Origin: Candidatus Poribacteria bacterium
Lineage (GTDB): Bacteria > Poribacteria > WGA-4E > WGA-3G
Assembly (NCBI GenBank): GCA_965204285.1
Contig: OZ241980.1
Span: 261,811 to 325,810 of the forward strand
Direction: 5' to 3'
Length of the DNA: 64,000 nucleotides
Part shown: piece by piece, positions 1-20,301 of the stretch
Position numbering within the stretch: the stretch's first letter is position 1
How the letters are laid out: each line of letters begins with the position of its first letter
Made by a program: the position numbers and the translations under genes
The notes under the pieces: model-generated
Seen by the model: only the letters and a program-made list of their open reading frames with translations
What the model was told of the DNA's origin: nothing
Databases searched by the model: none

Positions 1-1784
1 TCCCCGGCGCGCAAAGTGATATGACAATCTACCTTGCTTATACTAACGGTGTATTCCGCACAGATAATGCAGGTAAATCGTGGACGCCACTGTCCGATGA
101 TTTGACAGATAGGAAAATTCATGCAATCGCTGCCGTTGAAAACACCGTCTTTGCTGGTAGCGATAAAGGGCTATATCGCCTTAAATCAGAGAATTGGGAA
201 CAGTTGCCAGTAGGCGGTAAAGTGGAAAATATTCGAGCGTTGGCAAGTGCTGAACACCGACTCTATGTTGCCGTAGGAAAGGAGTCTAAAAATCAAATAA
301 CTTCTCAATTCTTGTCAATGATGACAACCCAAAAGGCATCCAAATCGCTTTATCGGTCAACAGACTTGGGAAAATCATGGAAATCAATAGACCCTGAAAA
401 AAGTCCTATGAAAATGTCTGGAAAAACGAGTATTCGGTTCTCTGACAAAAATAATTCAGAATCTACTAACACAGTAAGAATAATTGCACACCAAGATAAT
501 CTATTAGTCATTAATCTGGGTGATAATTCTTTTTTAAATGATTCTTATTACTCAAATGATGCCGGTAATAATTGGAATATCTTGCCACTAAGTTTTTCAG
601 ATAGTGACTCACTACCTGCAATCACAATGTTGAACAAAAACACATTCTACAGCAGTGGAAATGGTAGCATCTATCACACAACTAATGCTGGCAAGACATG
701 GCGTCAACTGAATACTGGGTTGGTGAATTCTTTCGTTATGAATTTAGTCGCTGTTAATGGTGCCCTCTATGCAAACATAGGGTCTGAACTTGTTGCCTCA
801 TCTGACGGTGGTGAATCGTGGACAACTGTACTTGGTAGAATAAGCAGCATCAATGGCATGGTTGAATCCAATGGTGTTCTCTATGTCAAAGGTTCAAAGA
901 ATCTGACACCACACCTTTACCGCTTGTCTTTTAACAACCAGGTAACCCCTGTCCCCGGCATGCCGAATTTTAAGGCTCCGGACTTTAACAAGTTGATGGA
1001 CGAAAAAATCGGTAAAGCATTTCTTGCCACACTTCAGGAGGATGCTCAGAAAGACCTTGCAGCAGAAAAGAAGATAAATCCTGAACATTTTGATGCAGAA
1101 ACGTTCAATGAAACCTACAATAAGATTGTGCAGGAAAATCTAAAAAAGTCATTTCAAGTTTCTTTTGGCAGTTTTGCTGTCAGCGGAGCAACCTACTATA
1201 TGGAGTCCGGAAGGAAACTGTTCAGATGGAAACCAGGTACTTCTGAATGGTACGACACAGGATTAGAAGATGAAGGTGGATCTGATCACTTTTATGGGAA
1301 AATCGACGATTTTGATTCTATTCGTTTCAAGATTGCCGTATCGGGAGACACTGTTTACGTCGGCAAAAGAGATGGACACCTCATGCTATCGCATGATGAA
1401 GGTGACATTTGGAACGATGTCACCACAACACTTCCATTTTCTGTTGGACGTTTCAATGCTATTACTTTCGCTGGGCAAACTGTCTATGTGGCTACCGACA
1501 AAGGTGTTGTGTGGTCAAACAATGGGACTAAATGGCACACACTCATTGATGCAGAAGGAACACCTCTCGCTATGAAAAGGTTGGCAGTGGATGATACAAA
1601 GGTTTACGGCGAATATAACCATAAAATATATCAATTGAATAAGGACTCTGGCAAGTGGCAACAGGTTACGCCAGAAATCCCACAATTTGTTTTCTCTTTT
1701 GACGTTGATGGAGACACACTCTATGTCGGAACAGCAGGACGAGGTGTGCTACGTTTCACACTTGACGATCCCGTGGATCAATAA
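1..1784 (+). CDS. C-terminal part of an ECF-sigma/TM/BNR beta-propeller fusion protein (paralog A); the 5' end lies upstream of the window
   Basis: The reading frame is open from nt 3 and the first Met of the listed ORF is internal. The sequence KSDMTIYLAY... aligns to SESDMTIYLAY in the full-length paralog at 15297-18338. It carries Asp-box-like motifs (SDNAGKSW, STDLGKSW, TTNAGKTW, SSDGGESW, HDEGDIW). Its C-terminus DGDTLYVGTAGRGVLRFTLDD is shared with the paralogs. Confidence 0.7.
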   Translation, partial: PGAQSDMTIYLAYTNGVFRTDNAGKSWTPLSDDLTDRKIHAIAAVENTVFAGSDKGLYRLKSENWEQLPVGGKVENIRALASAEHRLYVAVGKESKNQITSQFLSMMTTQKASKSLYRSTDLGKSWKSIDPEKSPMKMSGKTSIRFSDKNNSESTNTVRIIAHQDNLLVINLGDNSFLNDSYYSNDAGNNWNILPLSFSDSDSLPAITMLNKNTFYSSGNGSIYHTTNAGKTWRQLNTGLVNSFVMNLVAVNGALYANIGSELVASSDGGESWTTVLGRISSINGMVESNGVLYVKGSKNLTPHLYRLSFNNQVTPVPGMPNFKAPDFNKLMDEKIGKAFLATLQEDAQKDLAAEKKINPEHFDAETFNETYNKIVQENLKKSFQVSFGSFAVSGATYYMESGRKLFRWKPGTSEWYDTGLEDEGGSDHFYGKIDDFDSIRFKIAVSGDTVYVGKRDGHLMLSHDEGDIWNDVTTTLPFSVGRFNAITFAGQTVYVATDKGVVWSNNGTKWHTLIDAEGTPLAMKRLAVDDTKVYGEYNHKIYQLNKDSGKWQQVTPEIPQFVFSFDVDGDTLYVGTAGRGVLRFTLDDPVDQ

Positions 1785-2958: not shown

Positions 2959-3071
2959 AGTTATAATATTCGCTTAGTACATTAACATTTTCCCTCCTCC
3001 ATTAAAACCTTAATTTCTTCCGTTCTTTCCAACTTTTTTTCCTCTTTCCCTTAAAAAATCAATTTTTTCTC

Positions 3072-3154
3072 AAATAATTGCAATTTTTTTTCAAAAAGTG
3101 CAATTATTGCTCTCAAAAATGTGTCTATATATTAAAAGACCAATTTATGAGGGT
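3072..3154 (+). promoter_or_regulatory. 83-bp conserved upstream element, copy A, containing AATTGCA-N16-TGCAATT and the palindrome GCAATTATTGC
   Basis: It is 81/83 identical to 5257-5339. It lies about 215 bp upstream of the start of gene 3369. Confidence 0.6.
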
Positions 3155-3368
3155 ATCTCATTATAGATTTAAAATATAACCCGTTATACTATAGTTGACT
3201 TTACACAATTAACCATGCACCGATGCCTGGCGTGAACTAAAAATTGAGTCCGAAGTAATTCGTCAAGAGTATATAGATATTCATGGAGCAGATGTCTATG
3301 AGCGACAAATGGCAGAAATTGCAAAGCACGATCGATATAAAAATAAGTAATTCAAATAGGGAGTTATC

Positions 3369-4151
3369 ATGTTAAAATCTTTTTTCTTTTCAAAACCTGT
3401 TGTTATCGGAATAGCAATTTTATTATTTGTCTCCACGTTATGTTTCTTATACTATCAATCGGTAATAACATCAATTGAGAAAGAACAAGCCAGCGATGAT
3501 AAGATAATTAAATCGTTAACAGAAGATGTCAAGGACTCCGATACACAGAAAATAAATAACGGTGATATAGATTTGCATGGTGACTCTGATATTGTAACTC
3601 CTGAAATTCCTGTTAAAACTAATAAAGCATTAGGCGCGGATCATGATGATTCGGATGTCGATCCATCTGTACAAGAGAATAAATTAACAATGCCTGATAT
3701 GGTAGAAAAGGAAGTTCGGATGTCTCCGTTTGGATTCGGCGCATATCCTAAAATTCCTGATGTTTACAGAGATTTGGGAGGTGTTCAAGATATATGGGGA
3801 CACTTTGAAGAGTTAGCGAAAACTGATCCTGATCAAGCAAGAATACAGGAACTTGGAGAAAGAGTGTTAGTTAAGTTATGGAATGAAGGACTGCAGCCCG
3901 AAGGTGCAAATTACTCAGAAGGTAAATTCTTTCCGCAGTATCCAAATACTGTATATGTCCAATGGGACACAATAACACTTGAAGATGGATCAACAGAAAA
4001 AATCCCAAGTCGTGTTGTAGGAGATCCGGCATTTTCCCAATTTGATCTCCAGTTTTATGAATCCAATGGACAAGATATTCCAGCTGGATTCAATTTGTTA
4101 GATTATGATAAGGATGGTATTGATCCTTATCAATTTCTCAATTTAAAATAA
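3369..4151 (+). CDS. hypothetical signal-anchored protein, paralogous family with 6191-6970
   Basis: It has an N-terminal TM segment. The C-terminal domain is conserved with 6191-6970 (SPFGFGAYPKIPD ... GIDPYQFLNLK versus SPHGLGPYPKIPD ... GIAPYDFLNLE). Confidence 0.6.
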   Translation: MLKSFFFSKPVVIGIAILLFVSTLCFLYYQSVITSIEKEQASDDKIIKSLTEDVKDSDTQKINNGDIDLHGDSDIVTPEIPVKTNKALGADHDDSDVDPSVQENKLTMPDMVEKEVRMSPFGFGAYPKIPDVYRDLGGVQDIWGHFEELAKTDPDQARIQELGERVLVKLWNEGLQPEGANYSEGKFFPQYPNTVYVQWDTITLEDGSTEKIPSRVVGDPAFSQFDLQFYESNGQDIPAGFNLLDYDKDGIDPYQFLNLK

Positions 4152-4180
4152 AGAGGTTAATTATGAAATACTTTGTTTAG

Positions 4181-4561
4181 ATGGTTCTAATATCAGGGCT
4201 TATTTTAAGCGTAATAACTGTCACATTTGCTGGCAGAAATAATGACTATGATGGATCGTTAAGTGGTCATGTCAGCACATGGCAAGGCAAGAAGGATAAA
4301 CTCCCGCGAGCGTATGCATGTGTGAATGGAGGATATAGAAAGTGGGAGGATGGGACATGGAGCCTTACTGCGTATGTGCCAAATCCGCAAACTCAAGGAT
4401 CTCCCTATGACTCTGGATCAGTGGCGTTTAACTCATGGATCTACGAGTCGCATTATCACAGAGGTCATTTCGGTGGCACGGTGAGTCAGTGTTATGCAGC
4501 CGCATTTTGTAATGCGAAAGAGATGAACGGGCCTTGGAGAACCGTTACAACGAGCTGTTAA
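4181..4561 (+). CDS. hypothetical small Cys-rich secreted protein
   Basis: The ORF has a hydrophobic N-terminus and is followed by a perfect hairpin at 4595-4628. No family was recognised. Confidence 0.3.
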   Translation: MVLISGLILSVITVTFAGRNNDYDGSLSGHVSTWQGKKDKLPRAYACVNGGYRKWEDGTWSLTAYVPNPQTQGSPYDSGSVAFNSWIYESHYHRGHFGGTVSQCYAAAFCNAKEMNGPWRTVTTSC

Positions 4562-4594
4562 AATTGAACAGTGTCAATAAGTTAACGCTACAGA

Positions 4595-4628
4595 ATTGCA
4601 CCTCTGTAGCGTTAAGCTGAGCAAACGT
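4595..4628 (+). terminator. stem-loop ttaacgctacag-N9-ctgtagcgttaa, a putative terminator
   Basis: It is a perfect 12-bp inverted repeat immediately after the stop of 4181-4561. There is no clear U-tract. Confidence 0.4.
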
Positions 4629-4676
4629 TCCCAAGAGGAGATCAAATTTACAACCTATCAGAAACTATTTTAACCC

Positions 4677-4820
4677 AAGTTGCTACCTATAAGATTTCAG
4701 ACACGCAGACACCATTTTTAATAGAGAACAGTTCGTTATTGGTGAATATCGTAGCGCAAACTTTCAGTTTGCGTTGTTTTATGCACAAACTAAAAGTTTG
4801 TGCTACATAGGTGGCAACTT
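4677..4820. mobile_element. MITE-like element family 2, copy 1 (TIR aagttgctacct / aggtggcaactt)
   Basis: It has 12-bp terminal inverted repeats. Two internal hairpins are present: gcgcaaactttcagtttgcg and gcacaaactaaaagtttgtgc. A second copy with the same TIRs and the same flanking ttttaaccc lies at 55202-55344. Confidence 0.6.
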
Positions 4821-4885
4821 ATACCATTTCTAAATAATGATATTACATTATTTCATAAATCGGTTGTCCGAATGCAGCACCCTCT

Positions 4886-4918
4886 TCTGTAGGAGCGACC
4901 TCCTGGTCGCTCCTACAA
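4886..4918. repeat. short perfect palindrome related to REP family 1 (tgtaggagcgacc-tcc-tggtcgctcctaca)
   Basis: Seen directly in the sequence. It shares the ctgtaggagcg arm start with family 1. Confidence 0.6.
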
Positions 4919-5256
4919 AGAAACTCAAAAATCGGAATGATACTTTGTCAATTAGAAATGGTATTAGGTTATTTTAAGTAAACACATTCAAGCGAGGTAA
5001 TCAAGATGTTTCCCATATTAAGAAGCTAAGCAAGACCTTTATACGGTAATTTTGATGCTAATATAGCAGCTATGGCATTCGTAATGCAGCAAATTAATGC
5101 AGTTAATTCACTTGTCAATATGAACAACACTGAGCCGCAAATTAGAACCCTATGAACCTACTCAAATTACTCAGCAGTTACAGACGAATGACGACTTACC
5201 GCGAGAACTGCGATTTATGCACATCCGCCCGTAACATTTTTAATAATAGCACACTG

Positions 5257-5339
5257 AAATAATTGCAATTTTTTTTCAAAAAGTGCAATTATTGCCCTCA
5301 AAAATGTGTCTATATATTAAAAGACCAATTTATGAGAGT
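5257..5339 (+). promoter_or_regulatory. 83-bp conserved upstream element, copy B
   Basis: It is near-identical to 3072-3154. It lies about 215 bp upstream of gene 5555-6175, which is followed by 6191-6970. Confidence 0.6.
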
Positions 5340-5554
5340 GTTTTCTTATGGATTTGGTATAATTCAGCTAAGAGAAAAATGGATTGTTTTACCTATCTCT
5401 ATTTAAGACTTTTTATTTGATTTGCTGCGTGTGATACACACATTTTACATTACAGTAGATTTTACAACACATCTTTGGCAGGCGTGTTTTTTTAGGGGAG
5501 GCGCCAACTGGCCAATGTGCACATATTTTACATTTTAATTTGGAGGACGCAAAC

Positions 5555-6175
5555 ATGAAAACCACTCTTAGCACTTTCCCGTACGTTGTCACTCTACTTC
5601 TTGTTGTCTTGTCGTTTGCACTCGGTTGTGGCGACGAAGACGACAACGTTGTTATTATCCAACCAACCGAACCACCGATAGAGGAAGTGATCAAGGAACC
5701 TATAGAAGAAGTTGATGAAAAATTAACGTCTACACAACGCGCACGAAAACTGATGAATGAAGTTAATCAGAAAAGAACAGAGGCATACCAACAAGCAGAA
5801 GAAGAAAATGATTTTACCACGTTGCCTGAAACTTCTGAAGAAATCTTCAAAGAAATCCTCGGATTTGAAGAAAATTTTACAAACAAGTTGCTTGGAACAT
5901 GGGAGGCTGCTCTAAGAGCTGCGTTGGTGGTTAAGCGAATAGATAACGCTACAATGAAAAGGTATGAAAATTTTAAAATCGCTTACTTAGGAAAAATCCA
6001 TCTGCAAAATGGTAAACCTTATTTTGAATTTATCGGTGCTTATGATGACATTATCGCGGAGTATTTGCGAATTCAATTTGAATTTCCTGGCACACCTGAA
6101 GAAAAAATTCTTAATATGTTTGGCGATTCTCTGCTTAGAGGAAACACAGACATAATCTATCCAGAAGGTTTTTAA
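5555..6175 (+). CDS. putative lipoprotein, hypothetical
   Basis: GGAGG lies 7 nt upstream of the ATG at 5555. The signal peptide ends ...SFALGCGDEDD, which is lipobox-like. The mature part is acidic and low-complexity. Confidence 0.5.
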   Translation: MKTTLSTFPYVVTLLLVVLSFALGCGDEDDNVVIIQPTEPPIEEVIKEPIEEVDEKLTSTQRARKLMNEVNQKRTEAYQQAEEENDFTTLPETSEEIFKEILGFEENFTNKLLGTWEAALRAALVVKRIDNATMKRYENFKIAYLGKIHLQNGKPYFEFIGAYDDIIAEYLRIQFEFPGTPEEKILNMFGDSLLRGNTDIIYPEGF

Positions 6176-6190
6176 GCATGGAGGCTTGTC

Positions 6191-6970
6191 TTGTTACGGG
6201 ATATTTTCACCAATAAATGGGTTTTAAGTGCCTTGGCTTTTCTGTTTACTCTGACACTCTGTTGTTGGTTCTATTATCACAACGTTTCCAGCGAAATTGA
6301 GAAAGAACAATTGCGTCTGGATCAACTTATGCAACGCAATACGGATCGTGATAGTGAAAATGTCTTGACAGATAACACCCAACATATAAAGAGGCAAACG
6401 CAAGCAAGTCAACACAAAGATAAACCAAATTCTGACTTCGTCGTGTTGCCAGAGCAAACATCACCCCAAGAAACATCGCATCTCAAAACGCCAGAGAACC
6501 TATCCGATATAGATGAAAAGCGGGATGAAGTTGTTGTATCACCACATGGGTTAGGACCTTATCCTAAGATTCCTGATGGCTGGAATCCGCATGCTTTTGA
6601 TGGCGAGATGACGATTGGTCAAGAATTGATAGAACGTGTCCGTATAAAAATGTTCAATGAAGGCATATATACGTATGGGGGCACCATAGACAACGGAACA
6701 GGTTTGGTGTATCCTATCACGCGCCACCGAGTTTATATTCGATGGGAAGAAGCAGTATTGCCATCGCTCGGTAAAACAAGATATGCCCAGTTGATTCGGG
6801 GACACCCAGATATTGTTGCTAAAATAAAAAGCAACGCACGAGCTCGGTTGTCGGATTTACCAGAACAAATGCGTCCGATCACTGAGGTTGATATACCAGA
6901 AGGTATCAATGTCTTAGCAGAAAGTGATGGCATTGCGCCTTATGATTTTCTAAACCTTGAAAGGGAATAA
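6191..6970 (+). CDS. hypothetical signal-anchored protein, paralog of 3369-4151
   Basis: It has an N-terminal TM segment and a conserved C-terminal domain, as for 3369-4151. Confidence 0.6.
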   Translation: MLRDIFTNKWVLSALAFLFTLTLCCWFYYHNVSSEIEKEQLRLDQLMQRNTDRDSENVLTDNTQHIKRQTQASQHKDKPNSDFVVLPEQTSPQETSHLKTPENLSDIDEKRDEVVVSPHGLGPYPKIPDGWNPHAFDGEMTIGQELIERVRIKMFNEGIYTYGGTIDNGTGLVYPITRHRVYIRWEEAVLPSLGKTRYAQLIRGHPDIVAKIKSNARARLSDLPEQMRPITEVDIPEGINVLAESDGIAPYDFLNLERE

Positions 6971-7000
6971 TCTTTCAATCTATAAAAAGGAAGGAATATT

Positions 7001-7501
7001 ATGAAAAAACTTTCGACGATCACGATCACAACGTTATTTATTTTCGCTGCTGTTCAGATATCAGTGATAGCTGTGAATAATAATGGAACAAGTCATTATC
7101 CATTTGAATTTGGTGTGTATTCAGGCATATCCCGCTATGTCAGCGATACAGATAGCCCTTTAAGTTCATGGGCATGCACTGGGATTTTTAGTCGCTCCGC
7201 AGATGAAGACTTGGGTCTACAACTCATATATAACTGGTCAGCATCCGCAGGTGTTTATTGTTCGGATGGCAATTATCGAGGCAGTTCCGATATGCGTGCG
7301 GATATTATGACATTTTATCGGACGGGCAGTAGTGATTTTGTAGGCGAAGTGAGCGAATATGTGGGTTTTTATGTCCAAATGGAACCACCGCCAGATAACG
7401 TCACTTTGGATATAGAAGATTGCAGTTCCCACGGTGAAATTGATGGTGAAAACCAGATAAATGGTAACTCGCGGAGTTCGCGCTCTGAGATACCATTTTA
7501 A
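7001..7501 (+). CDS. hypothetical secreted protein
   Basis: It begins with a signal peptide (MKKLSTITITTLFIFAAVQISVIA). GGAAGG lies upstream. Confidence 0.45.
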   Translation: MKKLSTITITTLFIFAAVQISVIAVNNNGTSHYPFEFGVYSGISRYVSDTDSPLSSWACTGIFSRSADEDLGLQLIYNWSASAGVYCSDGNYRGSSDMRADIMTFYRTGSSDFVGEVSEYVGFYVQMEPPPDNVTLDIEDCSSHGEIDGENQINGNSRSSRSEIPF

Positions 7502-7514
7502 CCATTACATGTGT

Positions 7515-7542
7515 CTTGCGCGGAGACGTTAAACCCGCGCTC
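7515..7542 (+). repeat. hairpin motif tgcgcgg-agacgttaaac-ccgcgc
   Basis: It lies immediately 3' of the stop of 7001-7501. The same motif recurs at 10100-10127 after the stop of 9845-10087. Confidence 0.5.
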
Positions 7543-7560
7543 TAACAAAAGGAGAATTTA

Positions 7561-7950
7561 ATGAATAACAAATTCTTACAACAATGCATCGCGCTTTCGG
7601 TGCTGTGCTGTATTGTATTAGCATTTATATTAATTATTAATGTAGAGGAAGCCGAATCCTTTATCATATGGTTTATAATTTGGTTGTTGAATAGAGTTAT
7701 AGATGCCGTAGAGGCACTTTGGGATTGGTTTAGCGACATAATCAATAGTATTCCGGCGATTGTGCAATCTATATCAAGATGTGCTACGGCTGTTTCTGCA
7801 TGTATGTCGGCTGTGCAGGAAGTATATGACGCTTTACAGATAGCTGAAGATGATCCGACATTATCGAATGTTTCTGCTGTATCGGCTAAAATTGCAGTTG
7901 CATACAATACATGTGGTGACGTGTGGGGCGAATGTTTCCCAGATGATTGA
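7561..7950 (+). CDS. hypothetical small membrane protein, Cys-containing
   Basis: AAAGGAG lies upstream. There are two predicted hydrophobic helices. Confidence 0.45.
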   Translation: MNNKFLQQCIALSVLCCIVLAFILIINVEEAESFIIWFIIWLLNRVIDAVEALWDWFSDIINSIPAIVQSISRCATAVSACMSAVQEVYDALQIAEDDPTLSNVSAVSAKIAVAYNTCGDVWGECFPDD

Positions 7951-8011
7951 CCTAATGGCAGCGCAAGCTTTCAACATAAAATTGCGCTGCCTCAACAAAA
8001 GGAGAATATAA

Positions 8012-8746
8012 ATGAAATTCCGACTAATGTTTTCTCTTAGCCTTTTAATACTTTTTTTGGGATGTGGCAGTAGTGATGATAACAGTGAGACACATTGGAA
8101 TGTCATAAATCAGGAAATACCAGAAGCCGATGTCATTCATAGCAATAAAGCTGAAGAGGTCCTTGCACAACTAAAACAAGAATTTGCAGGCGATATTCTT
8201 GATGATGATTTTCAGACAATCAAAGAACTCACGAATTCTCCAACCTATCTGAAGTTCATTTCGCAGGATGTTGAATATGGGTCATTTATGGATTATGTGG
8301 ATGCGAATATTCCACCAAAACACTGGTTTCAAGAACTAATTGAAAATTGGATCGACAACCCTGAAGATGCGGATTATTTAGTCACATATTATATCGTATC
8401 TAATGGTCGACATGGAAGAGCTCTTGAATACCAAGGTGAACCGGAAGGTACTGCTGATGAATTAATGACTGAGACGTTCGCCGAACCCCACGTATGGGCA
8501 TGGTTGAATGGACGTTTTCCAGATAATCGCGCATTTGTATTGTTTACAGTTGAGCTCGCTATTAGAGAAAGACAGTTAGAAGAAGAAGATATTTCAATAT
8601 GTGATGGATTAATTAATGATTTTGGACAGGATGATGGAATGATCATGTTCGCTTTAAACTATCCATTCAGGTTGCCTCAAATTTTAAATGATTTCAGTGA
8701 CATAGATATTTTCCTGAAATGGACAAAGGGAGAGTTTACTAAATGA
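8012..8746 (+). CDS. putative lipoprotein, hypothetical, acidic
   Basis: AAAGGAG RBS. The signal peptide ends LILFLGCGSSDD. The stop overlaps the next start as ATGA. Confidence 0.5.
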   Translation: MKFRLMFSLSLLILFLGCGSSDDNSETHWNVINQEIPEADVIHSNKAEEVLAQLKQEFAGDILDDDFQTIKELTNSPTYLKFISQDVEYGSFMDYVDANIPPKHWFQELIENWIDNPEDADYLVTYYIVSNGRHGRALEYQGEPEGTADELMTETFAEPHVWAWLNGRFPDNRAFVLFTVELAIRERQLEEEDISICDGLINDFGQDDGMIMFALNYPFRLPQILNDFSDIDIFLKWTKGEFTK

Positions 8747-9456
8747 AGCGCAAGTATTTTTTATATGTTTTAATTTCTATGGCCTTTATAATTCTCTGTA
8801 TATGGTTTTCTATACTTGATAAGCAAATTAAACAAAATATATCTGATCCGGTGACTGTGACAGAAACTAAGGTCAACGAATCTATCTCAATGCCAATAAA
8901 AAAGGCATTTGACACCAAAAAACCTCAGAATAAAAAATCGACGATTGGACAAGAATATAAAGATGTTATTTTGAGTTTTCTTCCATCCCACATGCACGAT
9001 TCTCCTGAAATGAAAAAAATCTTAGCGGTTTTCGAAAGTGAAGAATTTGAGACATTTATAAAAAATAATCCCCAAGGACTCGGTGACTTTTACGACTTCT
9101 TTCAATCACAAGGATTACCTCTGGATAAGAATGAATTATTTGCTGAATATGATAACGATTTCAAAAAATTATTTCCGAATCACACGACAGAACAAATTGG
9201 AGAACTTTTACATTTAGACCTTTTTGCTCGATTTCTTGAAAACGATGTGTATGTCCATTTCTATGAAGACGAAGCACATGGTTTAGAAACTTTTGAAAAT
9301 GTTCTGACGGATTTTACTCTGGAGTCCCATAATAAAATCTGGATGAACGCTCATTTCAAGGGAAATCATCGTGATTTTGGTGTGTGGGCAATGAATGTTC
9401 TTCAGGACCTGAGTATCTTTGAAATGGATAAAGATAAAATACGTCCCTACCTTTGA
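8743..9456 (+). CDS. hypothetical signal-anchored protein
   Basis: Its start overlaps the stop of the previous gene as ATGA, suggesting translational coupling. It has an N-terminal TM segment. Confidence 0.45.
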   Translation: MKRKYFLYVLISMAFIILCIWFSILDKQIKQNISDPVTVTETKVNESISMPIKKAFDTKKPQNKKSTIGQEYKDVILSFLPSHMHDSPEMKKILAVFESEEFETFIKNNPQGLGDFYDFFQSQGLPLDKNELFAEYDNDFKKLFPNHTTEQIGELLHLDLFARFLENDVYVHFYEDEAHGLETFENVLTDFTLESHNKIWMNAHFKGNHRDFGVWAMNVLQDLSIFEMDKDKIRPYL

Positions 9457-9848
9457 ACAAATTTCGTGCATACTTAACTCCTGAAGAAAATGAAACCCTA
9501 CGGGCACTGATGAATCAAGAGGATAAAAATACACCCGTTCCCACTCTTGATACTTCAGACGATATAATAACCGAAACTGTTACCAACACACCAATACCGC
9601 CTGTAACTCAAGATACATCTACCAAAACTGCTATACCCGAAAATACTCATGTATCTCATGATAAGAGATTCAGGAGTAGTCTTCATAAAACTTTTGAACA
9701 ATTTAAGGACTCAAATGTTCGCTTCCGATCCGCAATGCAGATCGTAGAACAATACGGTGTCCAAGAAGGACTCCATCAGATCAGAGAAAATGATCCTGAG
9801 ATGGCAATAATTGTTGAACGTTATCTGAAACAACAGGAGAAAAAATGA
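9453..9848 (+). CDS. hypothetical protein; start uncertain (TTG at 9453 or ATG at 9509)
   Basis: It is an in-frame ORF within a coupled gene string. It contains a Thr/Pro-rich linker. Confidence 0.35.
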   Translation: MNKFRAYLTPEENETLRALMNQEDKNTPVPTLDTSDDIITETVTNTPIPPVTQDTSTKTAIPENTHVSHDKRFRSSLHKTFEQFKDSNVRFRSAMQIVEQYGVQEGLHQIRENDPEMAIIVERYLKQQEKK

Positions 9849-10087
9849 AAAAACTGTATTTTTTCTTCTCTATAGCAGTGCTCATTATATTTGTTGCTAT
9901 CTTGTATGTTGTGGGTCATGCAACGGATACAACGTTAACAGACCCACTCAAAGAAGAAACTTCAATTAGTGTAACAGAGTCTGTAAAATCGAAAACGATT
10001 AAGAAAGGTTGTGGATGTTGTGAAAATCGTATGAAACGGTTAATGAAGAAATATAGAAATAAGAAAGCGGCAGCAAGTTCAAAGTAA
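9845..10087 (+). CDS. hypothetical small membrane protein with a GCGCC motif
   Basis: It has an ATGA overlap with the upstream gene and a single TM helix. The recurrent hairpin 10100-10127 follows it. Confidence 0.4.
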   Translation: MKKLYFFFSIAVLIIFVAILYVVGHATDTTLTDPLKEETSISVTESVKSKTIKKGCGCCENRMKRLMKKYRNKKAAASSK

Positions 10088-10099
10088 CAATTCATGCGT

Positions 10100-10127
10100 C
10101 CTGCGCGGAGACGTAAAACCCGCGCAC
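10100..10127 (+). repeat. hairpin motif ctgcgcgg-agacgtaaaac-ccgcgc, second copy
   Basis: It is near-identical to 7515-7542. Confidence 0.5.
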
Positions 10128-10211
10128 AAATACCGTAAAATCCATAGGTCGTGTTGAGTTTTGCGGAATTCAAAATAGCAACTAACAACAACCAAAACAA
10201 GGAGGAATACC

Positions 10212-10496
10212 ATGGCTACATATAACGCTACAGTTCATAGAGTAATAGATGGTGATACGTTTGAAACTACATCTGGTAAAAAGATTAGGTTACATGATGT
10301 ATACGCGCCTGAAGCAGGAGAAGACGGCGGAGCTTTGGCTGCCAGCAGATTAAAAAATCTTATAGATGGTAAATCTGTAAAGATTCAAGAGTTGTATAGC
10401 AATTATGATAGAGAAGTTTCTGAAGTATGGCGAAATTCAGATGGACTTCATGTTAATCGAGCAATGAGAAATTTTGGTTATACCAAAAATTCATAA
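10212..10496 (+). CDS. minimal SNase-like (thermonuclease-fold) protein
   Basis: AAGGAGG RBS. It is alignable to staphylococcal nuclease: VIDGDTF, RLHDVYAPE (cf. RLLLVDTPE), and a later ...WRNSDGLHVNRAMRNFGY segment. There is no signal peptide. Confidence 0.55.
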   Translation: MATYNATVHRVIDGDTFETTSGKKIRLHDVYAPEAGEDGGALAASRLKNLIDGKSVKIQELYSNYDREVSEVWRNSDGLHVNRAMRNFGYTKNS

Positions 10497-12658
10497 TCAA
10501 TTAAAACCGAAATAAATAACGTTCAGAGTCGTTCAGTTTAAGGTTTTATCTTTACTTTAGCATGGTCGCGCCCAGGAGTTTCGCTCCTATAGTAAGATAT
10601 CCTTGTAAGAAGGTAGAAACCATTGGAAAATTGAATGGCTCTGAAGCGCGTTTATACAACTTCAATCAGTTCAAATCTGATGAGATTTTCCGTAAATTCA
10701 AAATCATTTTTTAATTGACTTATACTTTTAAATTCTAATTATGTTATACTAATCCTTGTAAAATGTAATACGCTCCAATTTGATTGTGAGATAACCTATG
10801 CAATACAATGATGCTGACCTGATTCAACGCACCTTAGAAGGTGATCAGCAAGCTTTTACGGATCTTGTGGAAAAATACCAAAAACAGATACACGCGTTGG
10901 CGTGGCAGAAGATTGGTGATTTTCACATTGCACAGGAAATTACGCAGGACGCTTTTTTAACTGCGTATCAAAAACTCGCGACGCTCACACATCACAGCCA
11001 GTTTTCAGGATGGATCTATGCTATTACCAGCAATAAGTGCAAAAATTGGCGGCGAAAGAAAAGACTGGCATTTCAATCCTTACAAACAATAGATCCTGTT
11101 GAATTAGAGGAGGTGTATTATTCAGAGTATATGACTAAACAACGCGAAGAAGCAGTAAATCGAAAACGACGCGCTATTGTGCAGAAATTGTTAAGTAAGC
11201 TGCAAGAGAGTGACCGCACCATCGTAAATCTATTTTACATCGCAGAAATGACCTGTGAGGATATTGGAAGGTTTTTAGGTGTATCTCCTAACACCGTCCG
11301 TAGTAGACTCCACCGCGCACGCAACCGATTAAAGAAGGAAGAAGCGATGATTAAAGAAAACTTAAGTAGTTTCCAATTGCCAACACAATTAACTGAAAAC
11401 ATTATGAAAGAGATTTCACACCTTAATCCAGTAGCACCTTCAGGAAACAGACCTCTGGTGCCAATAGTTGTTTCTGCCGCCTCAGCCATTTTAGTACTAT
11501 TGCTGATGGGTGCTGGCACACAATACTTAAATCGTTTTCAGAAACCGTATAGCTTAAACGCACAATCAGAACCGACAATTGAAATAACAGAGACACAACT
11601 TGTCATTGACATGCCAGCAGAACCTGCAGTACGCAACCAGATTGGACGTTCAGATGTCCCAGGCCAAAGTGACGGTGCGGGACAGAAACCAGACACACCA
11701 CTATTCGCTGCAGCACAAGCGGATGATGCCGAAATTTTAAAGGTAAAGCCGCAGTGGGTTAAAACAAAAGGATTTGAAGGCGGTGTAATTAATTCACTTT
11801 TCTCAACAACGCGTAGAGACATTTTTGCAGAGACTACTACAACTCTCTACAAACTCTCAGACAATGGAACGAGATGGAAACCTGTCAAAATATGGTATGC
11901 ACCTTCACTTAGATGGACAGATTGGTCAATAGGTGGCAGACGGATGGTTGAGTCGAACGACACACTCTACATCGTCACAAATGAAGAAATTTGGGCATCC
12001 GTTGATAGAGGAGAGACATGGAATTCACTTGGAACACATCCCGAAGGACCGCCAATAGGTATGGTAAGAACCGATGCAGGGTTTTATCTTGGCCTTGCCG
12101 ATGGGATTTACAGATCTGAAGATGGTATGGCACCGTGGATATCTCTAAAAGATGGAATGGAACCAGGAAAAATTAAGGCGATTGCTGCAGTGGAAAACAC
12201 AGTTTTTGCAGGGACCAATAACGGACTCTATCGTCTCAAAACAGGTGTATGGGAAAAAGTATCAATTAATCAGCCAGATAATACAGAACAAAATCAGGTT
12301 ATCCATGCACTGGCAGTTTCTGAACGCCAACTTTATGCAGCAGTAGGAAAGAAGTTTGAATATAGGTCGGGAAAGCAGCATCAATTAGAACTTACAAATG
12401 ATTCTTGGTGGTCACTCTATCGCTCTAATGATTTTGGTAATTCATGGGATTCCATAGATCCAAGGAAAAGACCATTAAACGAGATAAAATCGAAAAGTGA
12501 AGTGCCAATCAATTTTCCACCCAATGGTGTCAATGTAGCATTAGGTGCAAACCTAAAGATAATAGCGGAAAAAGAAAAAGTTATGGTTGCTGTCCCATCA
12601 GAATTATTCTACTCAATCGATACTGGTGAGACATGGAATTACTTCAGTTTAAATGATA

Positions 12659-13671
12659 ACGTGAGTTTGATAAATAGTATTAGAAATTACATATCATTGG
12701 CAACTGATAGTCATTTTCTTTAAGTTCTTTATGTTTAAGTGAAGGTTTTTTCTGTAGACAGGTATAAGCGATCAAGGCAGCAACTGCATTCACTTGAAAG
12801 TTAACAGGACTTCTATGGCGTGTGTGTTGTATCTCTGTCTGACTTTTAAGTTCTTTATTCACCGACTCAATAAGCATGCGTTTTTTTAGAAGTGCTGCAT
12901 CAGCATCAGACAAAGGTTCAGGTTTCATATTCTTACGCACCTTGTAAATGAGCGTCACACCGTCTTCTTGGAGTCTCTCCCGCAGATTTTTGTTGATATA
13001 CCCTTTATCGGCAAATAGTTTGCCAAAGAGCCCTTGACACAACTGTGGCACGGTTCGCCTGTCATCTACGTTTCCCGCTGTCACCATAGCGGACAAGAGT
13101 TCACCTTGGTCGTTGATGACGAGATGTAGTTTAAACCCATAGAACCATCCCATAGAGGTTTTAGAACGCTCCGCATAATCAATGAAGACGCGATGCGCTG
13201 AAATCCGGCGATTGTGGCAGACCGGCAGCGGTGTTGAGTCTATGAAGGAAATGCCACGACACTTACCGAAACGGGTGTTGAGAAAAATAGACAACAAAAC
13301 CAATACCTCTTGTGAGAGCTGCACAAAACGACTATAGCTGACAAGGTTCGGAAACGCCCAACGCAGATGGAAACAGACATAATCCTGATAATACGCTTTA
13401 AAGTTTTTATACTGCTTCTGATGAAAAAGCACAAGTATCGTCATGACTTCGCTCGGATGAAGGCGCCGGGGTCTGCCCCGTGTGTTGTTTGTTCCGGGTA
13501 TGTCCGGCAACTGGTATTGTGCTTGATATTGTTCATACGTAAGAAAAAAGTCGTCAATTTCACAGAAAAGTGTTATGATATCCATCAGAGAACTCCTTTG
13601 TAAGTATAATGGTATACTTCATCATAACAAAGGGGTTCTCTATTTACCAGTTTTTAATTATCAAACTCACG
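12659..13671 (-). mobile_element. IS982-family insertion sequence (1013 bp)
   Basis: It has perfect 15-bp terminal inverted repeats (acgtgagtttgataa ... ttatcaaactcacgt). A 10-bp direct repeat, ttaaatgata, flanks it on both sides. It encodes one 301-aa transposase. Confidence 0.75.
12680..13585 (-). CDS. IS982-family DDE transposase
   Basis: The 301-aa product begins MDIITLFCEIDDFF and contains a GFKLHLV block and later acidic residues typical of IS982/IS4-like transposases. AAGGAG RBS. Confidence 0.65.
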   Translation of the reverse strand: MDIITLFCEIDDFFLTYEQYQAQYQLPDIPGTNNTRGRPRRLHPSEVMTILVLFHQKQYKNFKAYYQDYVCFHLRWAFPNLVSYSRFVQLSQEVLVLLSIFLNTRFGKCRGISFIDSTPLPVCHNRRISAHRVFIDYAERSKTSMGWFYGFKLHLVINDQGELLSAMVTAGNVDDRRTVPQLCQGLFGKLFADKGYINKNLRERLQEDGVTLIYKVRKNMKPEPLSDADAALLKKRMLIESVNKELKSQTEIQHTRHRSPVNFQVNAVAALIAYTCLQKKPSLKHKELKENDYQLPMICNF

Positions 13672-15052
13672 TTAAATGATAGGTTAGGTGCCAGAATTCC
13701 TTCCCTTGTTCTGATGTTGGATGCAAAGACTTTCTATAGAGTTGGCGAGGCAGGCATTTATCGTACAACCGATGGGGTTAAATCGTGGCATCTGCTTAAT
13801 ACTGGATTATCAAGTGCAACCGTTACAAATATAGTCGCGATTAAAAACCGCGTCTACGCAAAAACAACCGATGAAGTTGTTACTTCAACTGATGGTGGTG
13901 AATCGTGGAGACCGCTACCTATTGATGCTAAAAATATCTTTGTAATGGCAGGATTCAACAATGAACCATATATAAGGCAATATATGAGGAACTTAAAGAA
14001 CGCACCGCCTATTCTACGTTTATCCATTGAGGACAATGAACTTACCCCTATTCCGAATATGCCTGTCTCTGAGGGATTCGATTACATTTTCCAAGAACGA
14101 ATTCCTCCATATTTGATACAATTGGGAAGTTTCGCTGTTAGCGGTGATACCTACTATGTGGAATCTGGACAGAAACTTTACAGATGGAAACTTGGTACAT
14201 ATAAATGGTACAACACAGGTGTAATGGATAAAATGAAACAACCTGATCGCCGCCATAGGGCTACCATGTCTAATGATTATCCGATTGGTATTTCTTCATT
14301 TTTTGTTTCACCCGATTTAATGAGTTTTAAAATTGCAGTTTCAGGCGAAACTATTTACGTCGGCAAACGGGATGGGCATCTCATGCACTCACTTGATGAA
14401 GGAGTTACTTGGAACGATCTTACTGATCATCTACCATTTTCTGTTAAAAGTTATAAATCAATAGTTTGCGCTGGAAACTTTGTCTTTGTGGCAACTGATA
14501 AAGGTGTTATACTGTCTGGCAATGGTGTTGACTGGCACATACTCACAGATATAGAAGGGACACCTCTTATAACAAATAAATTAGTGGTGGATGATATAGC
14601 GGTTTACTGTGAGGCTAAGCAAAAAATATATCAATTGAACAGGAACACGGGCATCTGGCAACCGGTTACACCAGAAATACCATATCCTGTTTCCAGTTTT
14701 GATGTTGATAATGACACGCTTTATGCCGGAACTTTTGGTGGGGGCGTGCTACGTTTTTCACTTGATAATCAGAATTGAGTGATGCATTTATAATATCTCC
14801 AATATTCGATTCACATTGAATTAATATTTCTCCAAGCGGGATAAAATCCCGCTTTTTTAGTTTAAGTTAAATTTATAGAATTTAAGCATTTACTTGTTTT
14901 CTGCTATAATAATTGCAACACTTATAAAATCTGAAGAGCGCAATAAAATTGATCCTACTTCTGAAAACGAACTGGCTACGTAACCCATAAATATAATTTC
15001 ACCATCTTGCCAATCTTTCCTAAAAAAATCTATAAAATTCATATTCTTTCTA

Positions 15053-15085
15053 AAAATTGCATTTTTTTTCAAAAAAGTGCAATAT
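15053..15085 (+). promoter_or_regulatory. AATTGCA-N16-TGCAAT inverted repeat, third occurrence, upstream of the intact sigma-fusion gene
   Basis: It has the same half-sites and the same T8-C-A6 spacer as the 83-bp elements at 3072 and 5257. Confidence 0.45.
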
Positions 15086-15127
15086 CTAATCAGAAAATCG
15101 CGTTTATAATTACAGAAGGTTCTTTCA

Positions 15128-15230
15128 TTGTATGGTGAACCTTGAAATTAAAGAGGCACATTTTCTGTAGGAGCGATCTCCGAATCGCGACAAAACTCAC
15201 TGATAGTCGGGAATCGGAGTTCCCTCCTAC
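15128..15230. repeat. REP-like element family 1 (arm order X-Y)
   Basis: ctgtaggagcgatctccgaatcgcgac - 14 nt - gtcgggaatcggagttccctcctac. Its 5' flank tatggtgaaccttgaaattaaagaggcacat is shared with 1821. Confidence 0.8.
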
Positions 15231-15296
15231 GCCTCAAAATGTCCTGTTAATTCTAAAGGTCACTATAATTGAATTTTTCTATATCTAAGGTGTACG

Positions 15297-18200
15297 ATGA
15301 AAAACGATGATTCTGAACTAATTCAACGCACATTAGAAGGTGACCAACACGCTTTTGCTCTACTCGTAGAAAAATACCAAGAGCAGGTACACACCCTTGC
15401 GTGGCAAAAAATTGGTGATTTTCACATTGCACAAGAAATCACGCAAGATGTTTTCCTCACTGCATATCAAAAATTCTCGACCTTCACACACTACAGACAA
15501 TTTGCAGGATGGCTCTATGTTGTTACAAACCGAAAGTGCATTGCATGGCACCGGAAGAAAAAAATAAAAACACAATCAATTGATGAGACAAATCCAATTG
15601 AGTTGGAGGAAGCATATTATACAGAATATATGGCGCATCAGCGGGAAGAATCAGCAAAAGAAAAACGCCGCACTATAGTTCATAAACTGCTCAGCAAGCT
15701 AAAGGAAAGTGACCGTACAGTGATGAACCTCTATTACATCGCTGAAATGTCATGTGAAGAAATTGCTGAGTTTTTGGGTGTATCTCCCAATACGGTTCGG
15801 AGTAGACTCCACCGCGCACGCAACCGATTAAAGAAGGAGGAAGCAATGATTAAAGAAAATCTCAGCAGTTTCCAACTGCCAACACAATTAACTGAAAACA
15901 TTATGAAGGAAATTTCACGTCTCAATCCAGCGGCACCTTCTGGAAATAAACCACTTGTGCCGATAGCAGTTTCTGCCGCCGCTGCAGTTTTAGTCTTAAT
16001 GCTGATAGGGACTGGGATGCAATACTTAAATCGTTTTCAGAAACCGTATAGCTTAAACGCACAATCTGAGCCGACGATTGAGATAACAGAGACACAACTT
16101 GTCATTGACACACCAGTAAAACCGTCTGTACGGACTCAGGTTGGGAAATCTGATGTAACAGGTAGAACAGAAGGGGCAGGTCAAAAACCGGACGCGCCAC
16201 TATTGGCTGCAGCACAAGTGGATGAAGATGAAATATCAAAACCGATACGGCAATGGAGAGATGCAAAAGGACCGGAAGGTGGTGCAGTTGGTACTCTCTT
16301 CACAACAAACAGCGGTGACGTGTATGCAACGTCAAAAAACGGTCTCTACAGACTCACAGGTGATGGAAAAGCATGGAAACTCATAAACACTATTAAATAT
16401 TCTTCCGGTGATGCACTAACAGGAAGGAATGTATTTCGACATGTAGCAGAATGGCAGAATACATTCTACCGTGCTATTGATACAAAAATCTTCGCTTCTA
16501 CAGATAGAGGCGCGACATGGAAAGAATTTTGCGAGTGTATAAAAGGTGATCTTGTTGGTATGGTGATAACAGGAAGTAATCCAGAATCTGAAAGCGATAT
16601 GACAATCTACCTTGCTTACAAGAAAGGAGTCTTCCGTTCAGATAATGCTGGCAAATCGTGGACACCACTACCCGAAGGTATCAACGATAGACAAATTGGT
16701 GTAATCACTAATATAGGAAATACTGTTTTTGTCGGTACTGACAAAGGACTTTATCGTCTTAACGCTGATAAATGGGAACAATTGTCCATCGCTCAAGCAG
16801 ATACGAAAGAAAACACGCTACCTATTATTGCGATGGAAGTTGCAGAAAATAGCCTCTATGTTGTTACAAGGAAAAGTATATTTGGAGATCCTGATCCATT
16901 ATACACAAGTTTCGGTTTGTCGCGTGTAAGAATCAATTCTCGGATACCAAGAATTGGATTTAAACCTCGTGAACCATACGTGTGGTCAATCTTTCGTTCA
17001 GATGATATAGGCAATTCATGGAAAACTATTACGCCAGATAGCAACAATATAAAGAAGAAACCAGGGCAAAAGCCAAAAATCTCCAATATATTTCCACCAC
17101 GTAAGAACGAAGGCGATGCTCCCTTTATAACATCTCTGGATACAACCTTCAAAATGTCTGCAGCGGTGGGAAAGGTGGTAGTAATAGATGGTGAGGCATT
17201 CTTTTTTTCTATCAATGCTGGTGAAACTTGGAGAACCGTAGACAAAACGGCTAATATAGGTAAGACTTCTGGTTTGGCATTGTTAAATGAGAATACTATC
17301 TATGTATCTGGAAGATTCGGAATTTATCGCTCGACTGATGGCGGAGAATCATGGCATGAATTTAATACCGGTTTAGTGAACACAGAAGTTCGGGAATTAA
17401 TTGCTGTTAAAGGAACCCTCTACGCAAACACAAGAACTGGACTTTTCAGTTCTGTTGACGGTGGAGAATCGTGGATACCTGTTCCAGGCGATACTGGCTA
17501 TCTCACGCGTTTGGCGAAATTTAACGAGGAGCTCTATGTAAGAGATGATAAAATCGGTGCACCCCGGTTTTTCCGCTTTTCCGCCAAAGACAATAGACTC
17601 ATGGACATCTCAGAAATACCTGCCTTTAAAAAAGTTGATTTTCATAAAGAAGTACGTGAGAAACCAATTCAGGATAGAGGACCTATAACATCGGTACCAC
17701 ACGGAAAGGGAAGTTTTTATACGTTGATGCTTGGTAGCTTTGCTGTCAATGATGGAACGTATTATGTGGAATATATGCAAAAACTCTTCAAATGGAAATC
17801 TGGTATACCTGAATGGTCCAACACTGGATTATTAGATAAAATTGGTATCGAGAAAAATTGGTATTCCAATAACTTATTCGATTCTATTGGCTTTAGGCTT
17901 GCTGCCTCAGAGAATAATGTTTACGTTGGAAAATGGGATGGTCATCTCATGCAATCGTTTGATGAAGGCAACACATGGAATGATGTCACCGCGAATCTTC
18001 CATTTTCTGTCGTCCATTTTAGGGCAATAGTTTTCGCTGGAAACTTTGTTTATGTCGCAACCGACAAGGGCGTCGTGCTGTCAGGCAACGGCAATGACTG
18101 GCACATACTCACTGATGCAGAAGGGGCTGCTCTTGTTATGAATAGATTAGCAGTGGATGACACGACGGTTTACGGGGAATCTAAGCGAATAGTTTACCAA

Positions 18201-18338: not shown

Positions 18339-18387
18339 CTTTAGCATTGAGTTGATTGTAGTAAAACTTACAATTAATGGGACACTT

Positions 18388-18446
18388 CTGTAGCGCAAAC
18401 TGTTAGTTTGCGTCACATCGGCACAAACTAACAGTTTGTGCTACAC
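18388..18446. repeat. solo internal double-hairpin of MITE-like family 2
   Basis: It has gcgcaaactgttagtttgcg and gcacaaactaacagtttgtgc but lacks the TIRs. Confidence 0.55.
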
Positions 18447-18677
18447 CTTCTATTGTCCGTTATGTTACAAAACAGGTTTATCAAAGTGTCTCAATAATTT
18501 CAAAGTTCACTATAAATCTACAGCGTATCTCATAAATAGTAAAAACATTAGATTGTTTTTTAATTATGAATCATTTCTGTTTTGAAGTAATAATCCAACG
18601 TCTTGTATCGCCACCCCAAACTTTATTATTTAAGTTTGGGTGCACAGGTCTTGATAGTAATTTTCCAGGAGATAAAA

Positions 18678-19673: not shown

Positions 19674-19779
19674 AGATAATCACGGTTCACCATGCAGAAA
19701 ATACCATTTCTAAGTGATTATATTGCATTATTTCGTAAGTCGGGTTTCGCTTGTGACACCCGACAAATGCCATACAGGA

Positions 19780-20073: not shown

Positions 20074-20126
20074 TTCCTTGTATCCCTTTGTTGTAGTAAA
20101 GCAAATATAATGAATTATAAAAATAT

Positions 20127-20280: not shown

Positions 20281-20301
20281 ATATCTAAAGTATCAGAACC
20301 G

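Follow-up and report, generated by a model that had tools for sequence, protein, structure and literature searches.

What is encoded by an islet of small genes of largely unrecognised families, and what, if anything, holds it together? The question is raised by a stretch of 64,000 nucleotides from a Candidatus Poribacteria bacterium (GenBank assembly GCA_965204285.1, contig OZ241980.1, positions 261,811 to 325,810 of the forward strand), hereafter "the window". Poribacteria are dominant, uncultivated symbionts of sponges, and their means of living with a host have mostly been deduced from eukaryote-like repeat proteins. The islet (3369-10496) consists of eleven plus-strand open reading frames (ORFs), designated here by their start positions (3369, 4181, 5540/5555, 6191, 7001, 7561, 8012, 8743, 9453, 9845, and 10212). 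It lies between genes encoding extracytoplasmic function (ECF) sigma factors fused to β-propellers ("sigma-fusions"). A preliminary description of this DNA treated the islet as one unit and suggested that it might be the regulon of these neighbours. The islet is best explained as a mosaic, fast-turnover region built from lineage-specific envelope gene modules. It holds two copies of a two-gene cassette, composed of a membrane-tethered protein (family A) and a fast-evolving secreted partner (family B). This A-B pair is a conserved unit that recurs hundreds of times, with several copies in a genome and frequent tandem arrays. It defines two protein families left unnamed in current databases, and it could serve as a variable interface of the envelope or in competition, roles for which it is a concrete candidate.

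The pairing was documented in 82 sources, namely 81 fetched loci (numbered with the prefix L) and the first 20 kb of the window, in which ORFs were called and clustered into families. Among 138 A genes, 111 have a small gene on the same strand in the next 150 bp, at a distance of typically 11-13 bp; calling and clustering were naive and the loci are related, so that such counts are not independent and enrichments are indicative only. The small gene that follows, termed B, has a median product length of 162 aa. In 55 of 59 cases, an A domain and its nearest neighbour have partners of the same B family, and the median identity between A domains is 0.60 within a B family versus 0.38 between families. 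These values indicate that A evolves slowly and B fast, and that both are inherited together. Each B family goes with its own A clade.

In the window, family A is represented by genes 3369 and 6191 (coordinates of all features are collected in Table 1). The preliminary description had noted a C-terminal domain common to both, and they are indeed paralogs over their full length (29% identity, E 3e-23). The N-terminus of the family is conserved (MLRDIFTNKW) and leads into a transmembrane (TM) helix, followed by a variable linker and by a C-terminal domain that starts with SP[HF]GFG[PA]YP and finishes with DPYxFLNL. AlphaFold models this domain with a predicted local distance difference test score (pLDDT) of ~95 at residues 113-260 of 3369. 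The fold comprises two helices, two β-hairpins, a helix, and a strand, and the linker of ~60 residues is modelled as disordered. With this model, Foldseek detected nothing similar in the PDB (best E 0.6) or in BFVD, and the family profile found no solved relative among PDB sequences. A weak PHROG match of 6191 to an "Rz-like spanin", covering the TM and helix region (E 0.004), was judged to reflect architecture only. A is a type-II inner-membrane protein with a 7-residue cytoplasmic tip, the conserved TM helix, and the disordered linker, and its conserved α/β domain of ~145 residues faces the periplasm. The ortholog of 6191 is 95% identical in L082 and 37% identical in L002, where it stands directly downstream of a sigma-fusion gene. 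Gene 3369 shows a ratio of nonsynonymous to synonymous substitution rates (dN/dS) of 0.36 against its ortholog in L083.

Family A occurs only in Candidatus Poribacteria. A search among 5.8 billion proteins yielded 19 relatives, of which all named ones are Poribacteria and the rest come from unnamed metagenomes. Species-representative genomes (one per species) contain 329 confirmed coding stretches, and an exhaustive profile search gave 793 cluster representatives at 50% identity, with lengths mostly of 240-270 aa among the best 150 of these 793 clusters. The 78 distinct A loci that were kept originate from Poribacteria metagenome-assembled genomes, three being titled "uncultured bacterium". 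Single chromosomes carry six or more copies. Tandem arrays are seen in L024 (10001-20711), L007, L012, L032, and L073. In L024, as many as 11 A-family ORFs follow one another, some of them without a B gene, and other loci show a regular A-B-A-B succession in which the same B family is repeated.

The B genes of the window are 4181 and 7001, homologs of which follow A genes in L004, L003, L002, and L001. The ortholog of 4181 in L004 is 63% identical and comes after an A gene, and so does the homolog of 7001 in L002 (E 4e-15). Of 101 B proteins, 88 have a signal-like hydrophobic stretch at the N-terminus, compared with 244 of the 659 small ORFs that served as background. The C-terminal motif [VIL]P[FW] is found in 18 of the 101 proteins, against 7 of 1778, and Phe or Trp is the last residue in 25 of 101. 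B proteins are rich in Trp, Ser, Tyr, Cys, Asp, Gly, and Asn, whereas Leu, Ile, and Met are scarce. By BLAST they form more than 25 families, and another 25 are singletons. Comparison of these families by hhalign, the family of 7001 included, gives probabilities of 84-97% (96.8% for F21-F69, 95.7% for F143-F17, and 85.6% over 156 columns for the family of 7001 with F69). Their joint alignment (A3) displays the common motifs DxDGPL, GxY, TIxDC, and a C-terminal VPF/IPW. In alignment A4, only three residues are invariant (Asp, Gly, Pro), with no catalytic pattern. By these profile comparisons, the B families are very divergent yet remotely homologous.

The model of 7001 is all-β, with 8-9 long antiparallel strands connected by short turns (pLDDT 69). 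Foldseek gave no significant match to it in the PDB, the best hits being immunoglobulin (Ig)-like sandwiches with a TM-score of 0.2, and no outer-membrane barrel of the OmpX, OmpA, or OmpW type was among the PDB matches of this moderate-confidence model. The B profile has no match among PDB sequences, and ten other B families have none in Pfam. B is a Sec-exported, all-β protein rich in Trp, Tyr, Ser, Asp, and Gly, of ~100-170 mature residues, whose gene starts a few bases after A. Several B genes are damaged. The ancestral frame of 4181 has a TAG at codon 6 (4178-4180), at which relatives have TGT (alignment with L083 and L004), and frameshifts are present in the ortholog of 4181 in L083 and in that of 7001 in L082. 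B genes are thereby damaged in three of four close-relative comparisons, and assembly errors may be a cause of such single-base damage.

All eleven genes of the islet carry a coding signal in their own frame according to a codon model for which 23 long genes of the window served as training set. Ten of them are called genes with identical boundaries in the public annotation of the contig, and the eleventh, 7001, is identical to P0020 of the same contig. In the gap between 4562 and 5539 (~1 kb), the codon model found no coding signal in any frame. The dN/dS values of 0.10-0.36, obtained for all islet-region genes compared with close relatives, indicate purifying selection. A reading of the islet as junk or non-coding DNA is ruled out by the coding scores, the homologs, and dN/dS values below 0.4. 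The genes of these lineage-specific envelope proteins are hence real and, as announced by the preliminary description, of no known family: Pfam, NCBIfam, PHROGs, and PADLOC gave no family above threshold for the islet proteins, except for the staphylococcal nuclease (SNase)-like 10212, and Rfam gave no match over the whole window. The placement between sigma-fusion genes was equally borne out, Pfam assigning Sigma70_r2/r4 and Sortilin/BNR domains to the flanks.

What did not stand is the unity of the islet. Comparison with L082 and L083 resolves it into a conserved core and two insertions flanked by repeats. L082 is a TARA scaffold of a close relative, with 84-90% nucleotide identity to the window. 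Its gene order is DUF4159, the orthologs of 5555, 6191, 7001, and the SNase-like gene, an intact sigma-fusion B of 982 aa, and then the counterpart of window gene 20302. Insertion 1, absent from L082, measures 2,185 bp, contains 3369, 4181, and non-coding DNA, and is flanked on both sides by a 102-nt repeat, the two copies of which are 92% identical. Insertion 2, also absent, measures 2,585 bp, contains 7561, 8012, 8743, 9453, and 9845, and has a copy of a 43-nt repeat on either side. L082 possesses a single copy of each repeat, aligning to both copies of the window. A second relative (L083/L084) carries insertion 1 with both repeat copies. The third difference from L082 is an insertion sequence (IS) within sigma-fusion B, the intact protein of L082 aligning to 10743-12658 and 13672-14769 of the window. 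The fourth is a segment of ~5.5 kb (14770-20290) harbouring the sigma-fusion gene 15297-18338 and a gene for a PD40 β-propeller protein (18603-19673). Synonymous divergence (dS) from the relatives is 0.36-0.55 for DUF4159, sigma-fusion, SNase, and 7001, and 0.07-0.21 for 3369, 4181, 5555, and 6191. The lower values of the latter indicate that A-bearing segments were exchanged between lineages after their surroundings had diverged. Cassettes have been acquired and lost, and close relatives have recently exchanged them, at repeats that lie on their flanks.

The hairpin that the preliminary description had noted as recurrent, TGCGCGGAGACGTWAAACCCGCGC, occurs exactly twice (7517 and 10102; 0 expected by chance). 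It belongs to the 43-nt repeat at the junctions of insertion 2, and therefore represents a duplicated junction and not a recurring terminator. A role as terminator was rejected, as the hairpin has no U tract, is of unremarkable folding energy (z -1.0 and -1.5), and was not picked by a terminator scan. It was not found in the other 81 loci. The non-coding stretch within insertion 1 includes a perfect hairpin at 4888-4917 (-28.7 kcal/mol, z -6.9). The segment 4674-4969 is absent from L083, and 4818-4909 is found again elsewhere in L082. This hairpin is one copy of a family of palindromes (TGTAGGAGCGATCTCCGAATCGCGAC and relatives) resembling repetitive extragenic palindromic (REP) elements, which are intergenic and often near junctions of segments that differ between relatives.

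Dedicated regulation of the cassettes is likely. Sigma-fusion genes number 4.7 per 100 kb in the kilobase closest to an A gene, 3.2 in the next one, and ~0.8 farther out, an excess of about 4-5-fold within 2 kb, and a family of sigma54 activators shows the same enrichment pattern. Sites of the form TGGCAC-N5-TTGC number 58 in 3.1 Mb, of which 18 fall in the 400 nt that precede an A gene, versus 1.9% expected. Near-consensus sigma54 promoters (TGGCACGGAAATTGCT) are positioned directly upstream of A genes in many loci, often adjoined by a gene encoding a sensor-less sigma54 activator. The cassettes of the window have no sigma54 promoter: the sole site with one mismatch, at 5073, ~480 nt upstream of 5555, is within chance. 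A sigma-fusion gene followed by A is found in L002, L033, and L036, and the succession of A, an F17-type B, and a sigma-fusion gene in seven loci. At least five different side-by-side arrangements of A and sigma-fusion genes are conserved. In loci with A and an F17-type B (L018, L028, L034, and related ones), a motif, TTCATTTTATGCACCCTTTT, is located ~60-130 nt upstream of the A start, with an inverted copy further upstream in three of them. It may be an operator or promoter of this cassette subtype, which adjoins sigma-fusion genes.

Could the islet nonetheless be the regulon of the flanking ECF sigma-fusions, with its operons driven from a shared promoter? The 102-nt repeat resembles a promoter element. 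Its 27-nt core, TTGCAATTTTTTTTCAAAAAGTGCAAT, is found in the 64-kb window only upstream of 3369, 5555, and 15297 (three occurrences, 0 expected). The enrichment of sigma-fusions within 2 kb of A, the conserved adjacent arrangements, and L082, which keeps the core islet beside sigma-fusion B, point in the same direction. However, 60 of the 82 loci have no sigma-fusion gene within 10 kb, and many cassettes have a sigma54 promoter and an adjoining sigma54 activator instead. The 102-nt element is unlike known ECF promoters, was not found in the other 81 loci or in JGI metagenome contigs, and also serves as a recombination junction. Furthermore, no copy of it was found upstream of sigma-fusion B (10798), a gene that is itself broken by the IS. 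The regulon proposal is plausible for this locus, although we give it a low probability. The co-occurrence of the islet and sigma-fusions, which the preliminary description had proposed to examine by comparative genomics, has comparative support in the immediate vicinity of A genes and does not extend to most loci.

As to the function of the cassette, the reading that we prefer, although tentatively, is that A and B constitute a cognate envelope complex, with A as tether or holder and B as a variable, non-enzymatic binding protein. The two would form a physical pair in the periplasm, in which A would act as the membrane tether or dedicated holder, and B would be the variable working part, facing the host, a phage, or a competitor. 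Each cassette would be switched on by the regulator next to it, be it a sigma54 activator or an ECF sigma factor whose fused propeller acts as extracytoplasmic sensor. A number of points weigh against this proposal. Contact between A and B is presumed, and neither protein displays a known domain or catalytic signature, so that composition and fold class are the sole basis for regarding B as a binding protein. The model of B is of moderate confidence (pLDDT 69), and a periplasmic tether alone would not place B on the cell surface. About a quarter of the A genes have no B gene, and A-only arrays exist in L024 and L007. The locus enrichments, drawn from related loci by naive ORF calling, are only indicative, and the sigma54 promoters seen elsewhere are missing from the window's own cassettes. 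Finally, A genes without B and damaged B genes would fit an immunity gene at least as well. The cassettes may, more speculatively, be a novel type of contingency module of sponge symbionts. Each pair would have its own regulation and be exchanged by recombination, its conserved membrane tether, of novel fold, displaying a hypervariable β-rich partner. Diversification would then be driven by the host, phages, or competitors, and the sensor-sigma or sigma54 regulators would choose the variant that is expressed; we regard this wider scenario as rather unlikely.

The main rival of the cognate envelope complex is a toxin-immunity system, in which B would be a Sec-exported, non-enzymatic toxin or bacteriocin acting in the periplasm or on a competitor's envelope, and A its cognate, tethered immunity protein. 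The colicin M immunity protein Cmi, tethered to the inner membrane and exposing a periplasmic domain, offers a comparison for A. Several evolutionary patterns would suit such a system, and to this extent the toxin-immunity suggestion of the preliminary description retains some value: adjacent pairs co-diversify, many distinct pairs coexist in a genome, tandem arrays occur, with A-only arrays (L024, L007) reminiscent of orphan immunity arrays, A-bearing segments were recently exchanged between lineages, and A is intact next to a B gene damaged by a nonsense codon in the window and by frameshifts in L083 and L082. Against these patterns stand the absence of any toxin, bacteriocin, or defence domain for A or B in Pfam, NCBIfam, PHROGs, and PADLOC, the three invariant residues of B (Asp, Gly, Pro) without catalytic pattern, and the lack of a linked delivery or export system in the 82 loci. 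In addition, conservation is much higher in A than in B, unusually for an immunity protein, the A gene comes before B, and dedicated sigma54/ECF regulators are not typical of such cassettes. A toxin-immunity function is rather unlikely. Less probable still is a trans-envelope pair, in which B would be a small outer-membrane β-barrel or surface protein with variable loops, and A would span the periplasm and dock on it in a TonB/TolA-like manner. The abundance of Trp, Tyr, Ser, Gly, Asp, and Asn in B and its paucity in Leu, Ile, and Met agree with this idea, as do the 8-9 long antiparallel strands with short turns of the B model, the disordered linker of ~60 residues in A, and the aromatic end with alternating hydrophobic residues of several B families (e.g., YSAYAHVPF). 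Nevertheless, Foldseek retrieved no outer-membrane barrel, its best hits being the Ig-like sandwiches mentioned above, no Pfam outer-membrane protein family was matched, Phe or Trp is the last residue in only 25 of 101 B proteins, and the penultimate Pro and the enrichment in Cys are atypical of barrel proteins.

Known systems share single traits with the A-B cassette. The lipase-specific foldase Lif is an all-helical, single-copy protein whose partner is a lipase enzyme. As in the Lif/LipB-LipA systems of Pseudomonas and Burkholderia, A combines a TM-anchored linker with a periplasmic domain, and is encoded beside its own Sec-exported partner in a specific pairing. There is, however, no similarity of sequence or fold, A being α/β without a PDB match, its copies multiple, its partner without enzymatic signature, and the gene order reversed. 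The cassette resembles polymorphic toxin-immunity systems (contact-dependent inhibition, type VI secretion, colicin M/Cmi) in that adjacent partners co-diversify, a genome holds numerous pairs, tandem arrays occur, strains exchange them, and one partner can be lost while the other is kept. It differs from them by the lack of a toxin domain or delivery system, the Sec signal on the variable partner, the slow conserved partner, and the adjoining regulators. SusC/SusD pairs are each accompanied by an ECF sigma/anti-sigma or hybrid two-component regulator of their own. The polysaccharide utilisation loci of Bacteroidetes in which they occur resemble the A-B cassettes as multi-copy, paired envelope modules, each copy often lying beside its own regulator with extracytoplasmic sensing. 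In contrast, the A-B proteins are far smaller, have no homology to SusC/SusD, and come with no TonB-dependent transporter and no cassette enzymes. As for the regulators, planctomycetal ECF sigma factors of the ECF01-Gob type possess a TM helix and WD40 repeats. The flanking genes of the islet likewise encode sigma70 regions 2 and 4, a TM helix, and a β-propeller, but the latter is of the BNR/Sortilin/Ycf48 type, and these genes are neighbours of the islet, outside the cassette. C-terminal extensions of ECF sigma factors form a regulatory class (PMC7826278).

Full-text literature, Pfam, and NCBIfam yielded no description of the A or B families. The two families, the A fold, and the behaviour of the cassette are new here, and an expanded, lineage-specific family of paired envelope proteins is familiar as a kind. 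The system yields objects that can be tested, namely cognate A-B pairs, promoters with sigma54 sites or the shared element, and insertion polymorphisms between strains.

Table 1. Features of the islet, its flanks, and its repeats (window coordinates unless a locus is named).
Feature	Position	Strand	Remarks
ECF sigma-fusion, 3' end (left flank)	21-1784		followed by the DUF4159 gene
DUF4159 gene (left flank)	2167-2958
102-nt direct repeat, copy 1	3069-3170	+	core at 3078-3104; ~290 nt upstream of 3369; left junction of insertion 1
A gene, copy 1	3369-4151	+	paralog of 6191; family alignment A1; N-terminal TM anchor, disordered linker, C-terminal α/β domain
B gene, copy 1	4163-4561 (annotated 4181-4561)	+	ancestral start ATG 4163; codon 6 = TAG
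Non-coding stretch with REP-like palindromes	4562-5253	.	no coding signal in any frame
102-nt direct repeat, copy 2	5254-5355	+	upstream of 5555; right junction of insertion 1
Lipoprotein	5555-6175	+	lipobox FALGC; 206 aa; called gene
A gene, copy 2	6191-6970	+	paralog of 3369; alignment A1; orthologs in L082, L002
B gene, copy 2	7001-7501	+	signal peptide, all-β, ends IPF; homolog after A in L002; superfamily alignment A3
43-nt direct repeat, copy 1	7503-7545	+	family D11; holds GCGCGG...CCGCGC hairpin; left junction of insertion 2
Membrane protein	7561-7950	+	129 aa; no homologs found; called gene
Lipoprotein, family F34	8012-8746	+	lipobox LFLGC; homologs in L013
Family F22 gene	8743-9848	+	two ORFs, 8743-9456 and 9453-9848, from one split gene; TM anchor, then helical domain, linker, and a conserved motif at the C-terminus
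TM protein	9845-10087	+	80 aa; Cys-rich basic tail; no homologs found; called gene; weak coding score 0.099
43-nt direct repeat, copy 2	10088-10130	+	right junction of insertion 2
SNase-like nuclease	10212-10496	+	94 aa; no signal peptide; PHROG 452; 82% ortholog in L082
ECF sigma-fusion B (right flank, from 10798)	10798-14778	+	sigma70 r2/r4, TM, BNR/Sortilin propeller; pieces 10798-12723 and 13609-14778
IS in sigma-fusion B	~12659-13671		DDE_Tnp_1_3 transposase 12680-13585 on the minus strand; splits sigma-fusion B
102-nt element, third copy (diverged, 72%)	15031-15128	+	upstream of sigma-fusion gene 15297-18338; 5' side of segment absent from L082
REP-like copies	1830-1916, 4888-4917, 15138-15224, 20113-20246, 21599-21632, 23450-23536, 58849-58902		20113-20246: three in tandem
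sigma54 sites, examples	L002 9916, 12025; L036 9919, 10784; L007 8610, 12348; L013 7450, 12270		other loci

The remaining genes of the islet are best explained as lineage-specific passengers unrelated to the A-B cassette, position being the only link detected. Lipobox-like cysteines, one of the features listed in the preliminary description, can be read directly from the sequence in 5555 (FALGC) and 8012 (LFLGC), with the Cys at +1 after a hydrophobic N-terminus. The ortholog of 5555 in L082 is 91% identical (dN/dS 0.34) and directly upstream of the 6191 ortholog. The homologs of 8012 in L013 (30% identity) retain the lipobox Cys and adjoin a homolog of 8743/9453, and in that locus the F34-F22 pair is again close to A and sigma genes. 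The two families are linked by hhalign with a probability of 23% only, and a homology of 5555 to either of them was discarded, hhalign finding no relation.

Genes 8743 and 9453 are the halves of one gene, as indicated by uninterrupted F22 homologs (360-474 aa) in L013, L020, L022, and L046 that align to both, the frame of 9453 having a stop at 9435-9437. The ATGA/TTGA overlaps at 8743, 9453, and 9845 are present in the sequence. Translational coupling from 8012 to 10087, which had been deduced from them, may hold for the overlaps that join distinct genes (8743-8746 and 9845-9848), whereas that at 9453-9456 falls inside one ancestral gene. Gene 7561 has a coding score of 0.093, versus -0.002 for an overlapping minus-strand ORF, and is followed by a strong hairpin (7957-7991, z -3.7). 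The same layout, made of a GC-rich hairpin, TC(T)AACAAAAGGAGAAT, and the start codon, precedes 7561 (7517-7560) and 8012 (7957-8011).

Beyond the window, L011 has at ~11.5-20 kb, downstream of an A-B cassette, four tandem repeats of an unannotated gene pair, F32/F33, with products of 250-275 aa each. In L003, a Phage_tube_2 gene (11932-13305) is 1.2 kb from an A gene, and no phage link is seen in the other loci.

The last gene of the islet, 10212, does encode a short SNase-like nuclease, as the preliminary description had stated. It falls below the cut-offs of Pfam PF00565 (E 0.0018, 19.2 bits, cut-off 21) and of NCBIfam NucI (17.4 bits, cut-off 250), and had no match among PDB sequences. With only 94 residues, it differs from the SNase family (PF00565/PHROG 452) by lacking the C-terminal helical part and the signal peptide. 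It matches the PHROG 452 endonuclease (E 4.6e-12) and PADLOC SNc (E 5e-4). By eye, the motifs DGDT, IRLHDVYAPE (R-L-x-D-V-x-A-P-E), and YDRE, with its later Arg, follow the order of the SNase active site. They were compared with Asp21, Arg35, Asp40, Glu43, and Arg87 of Staphylococcus aureus nuclease, its Ca-binding and catalytic residues, the equivalent of Asp40 being ambiguous.

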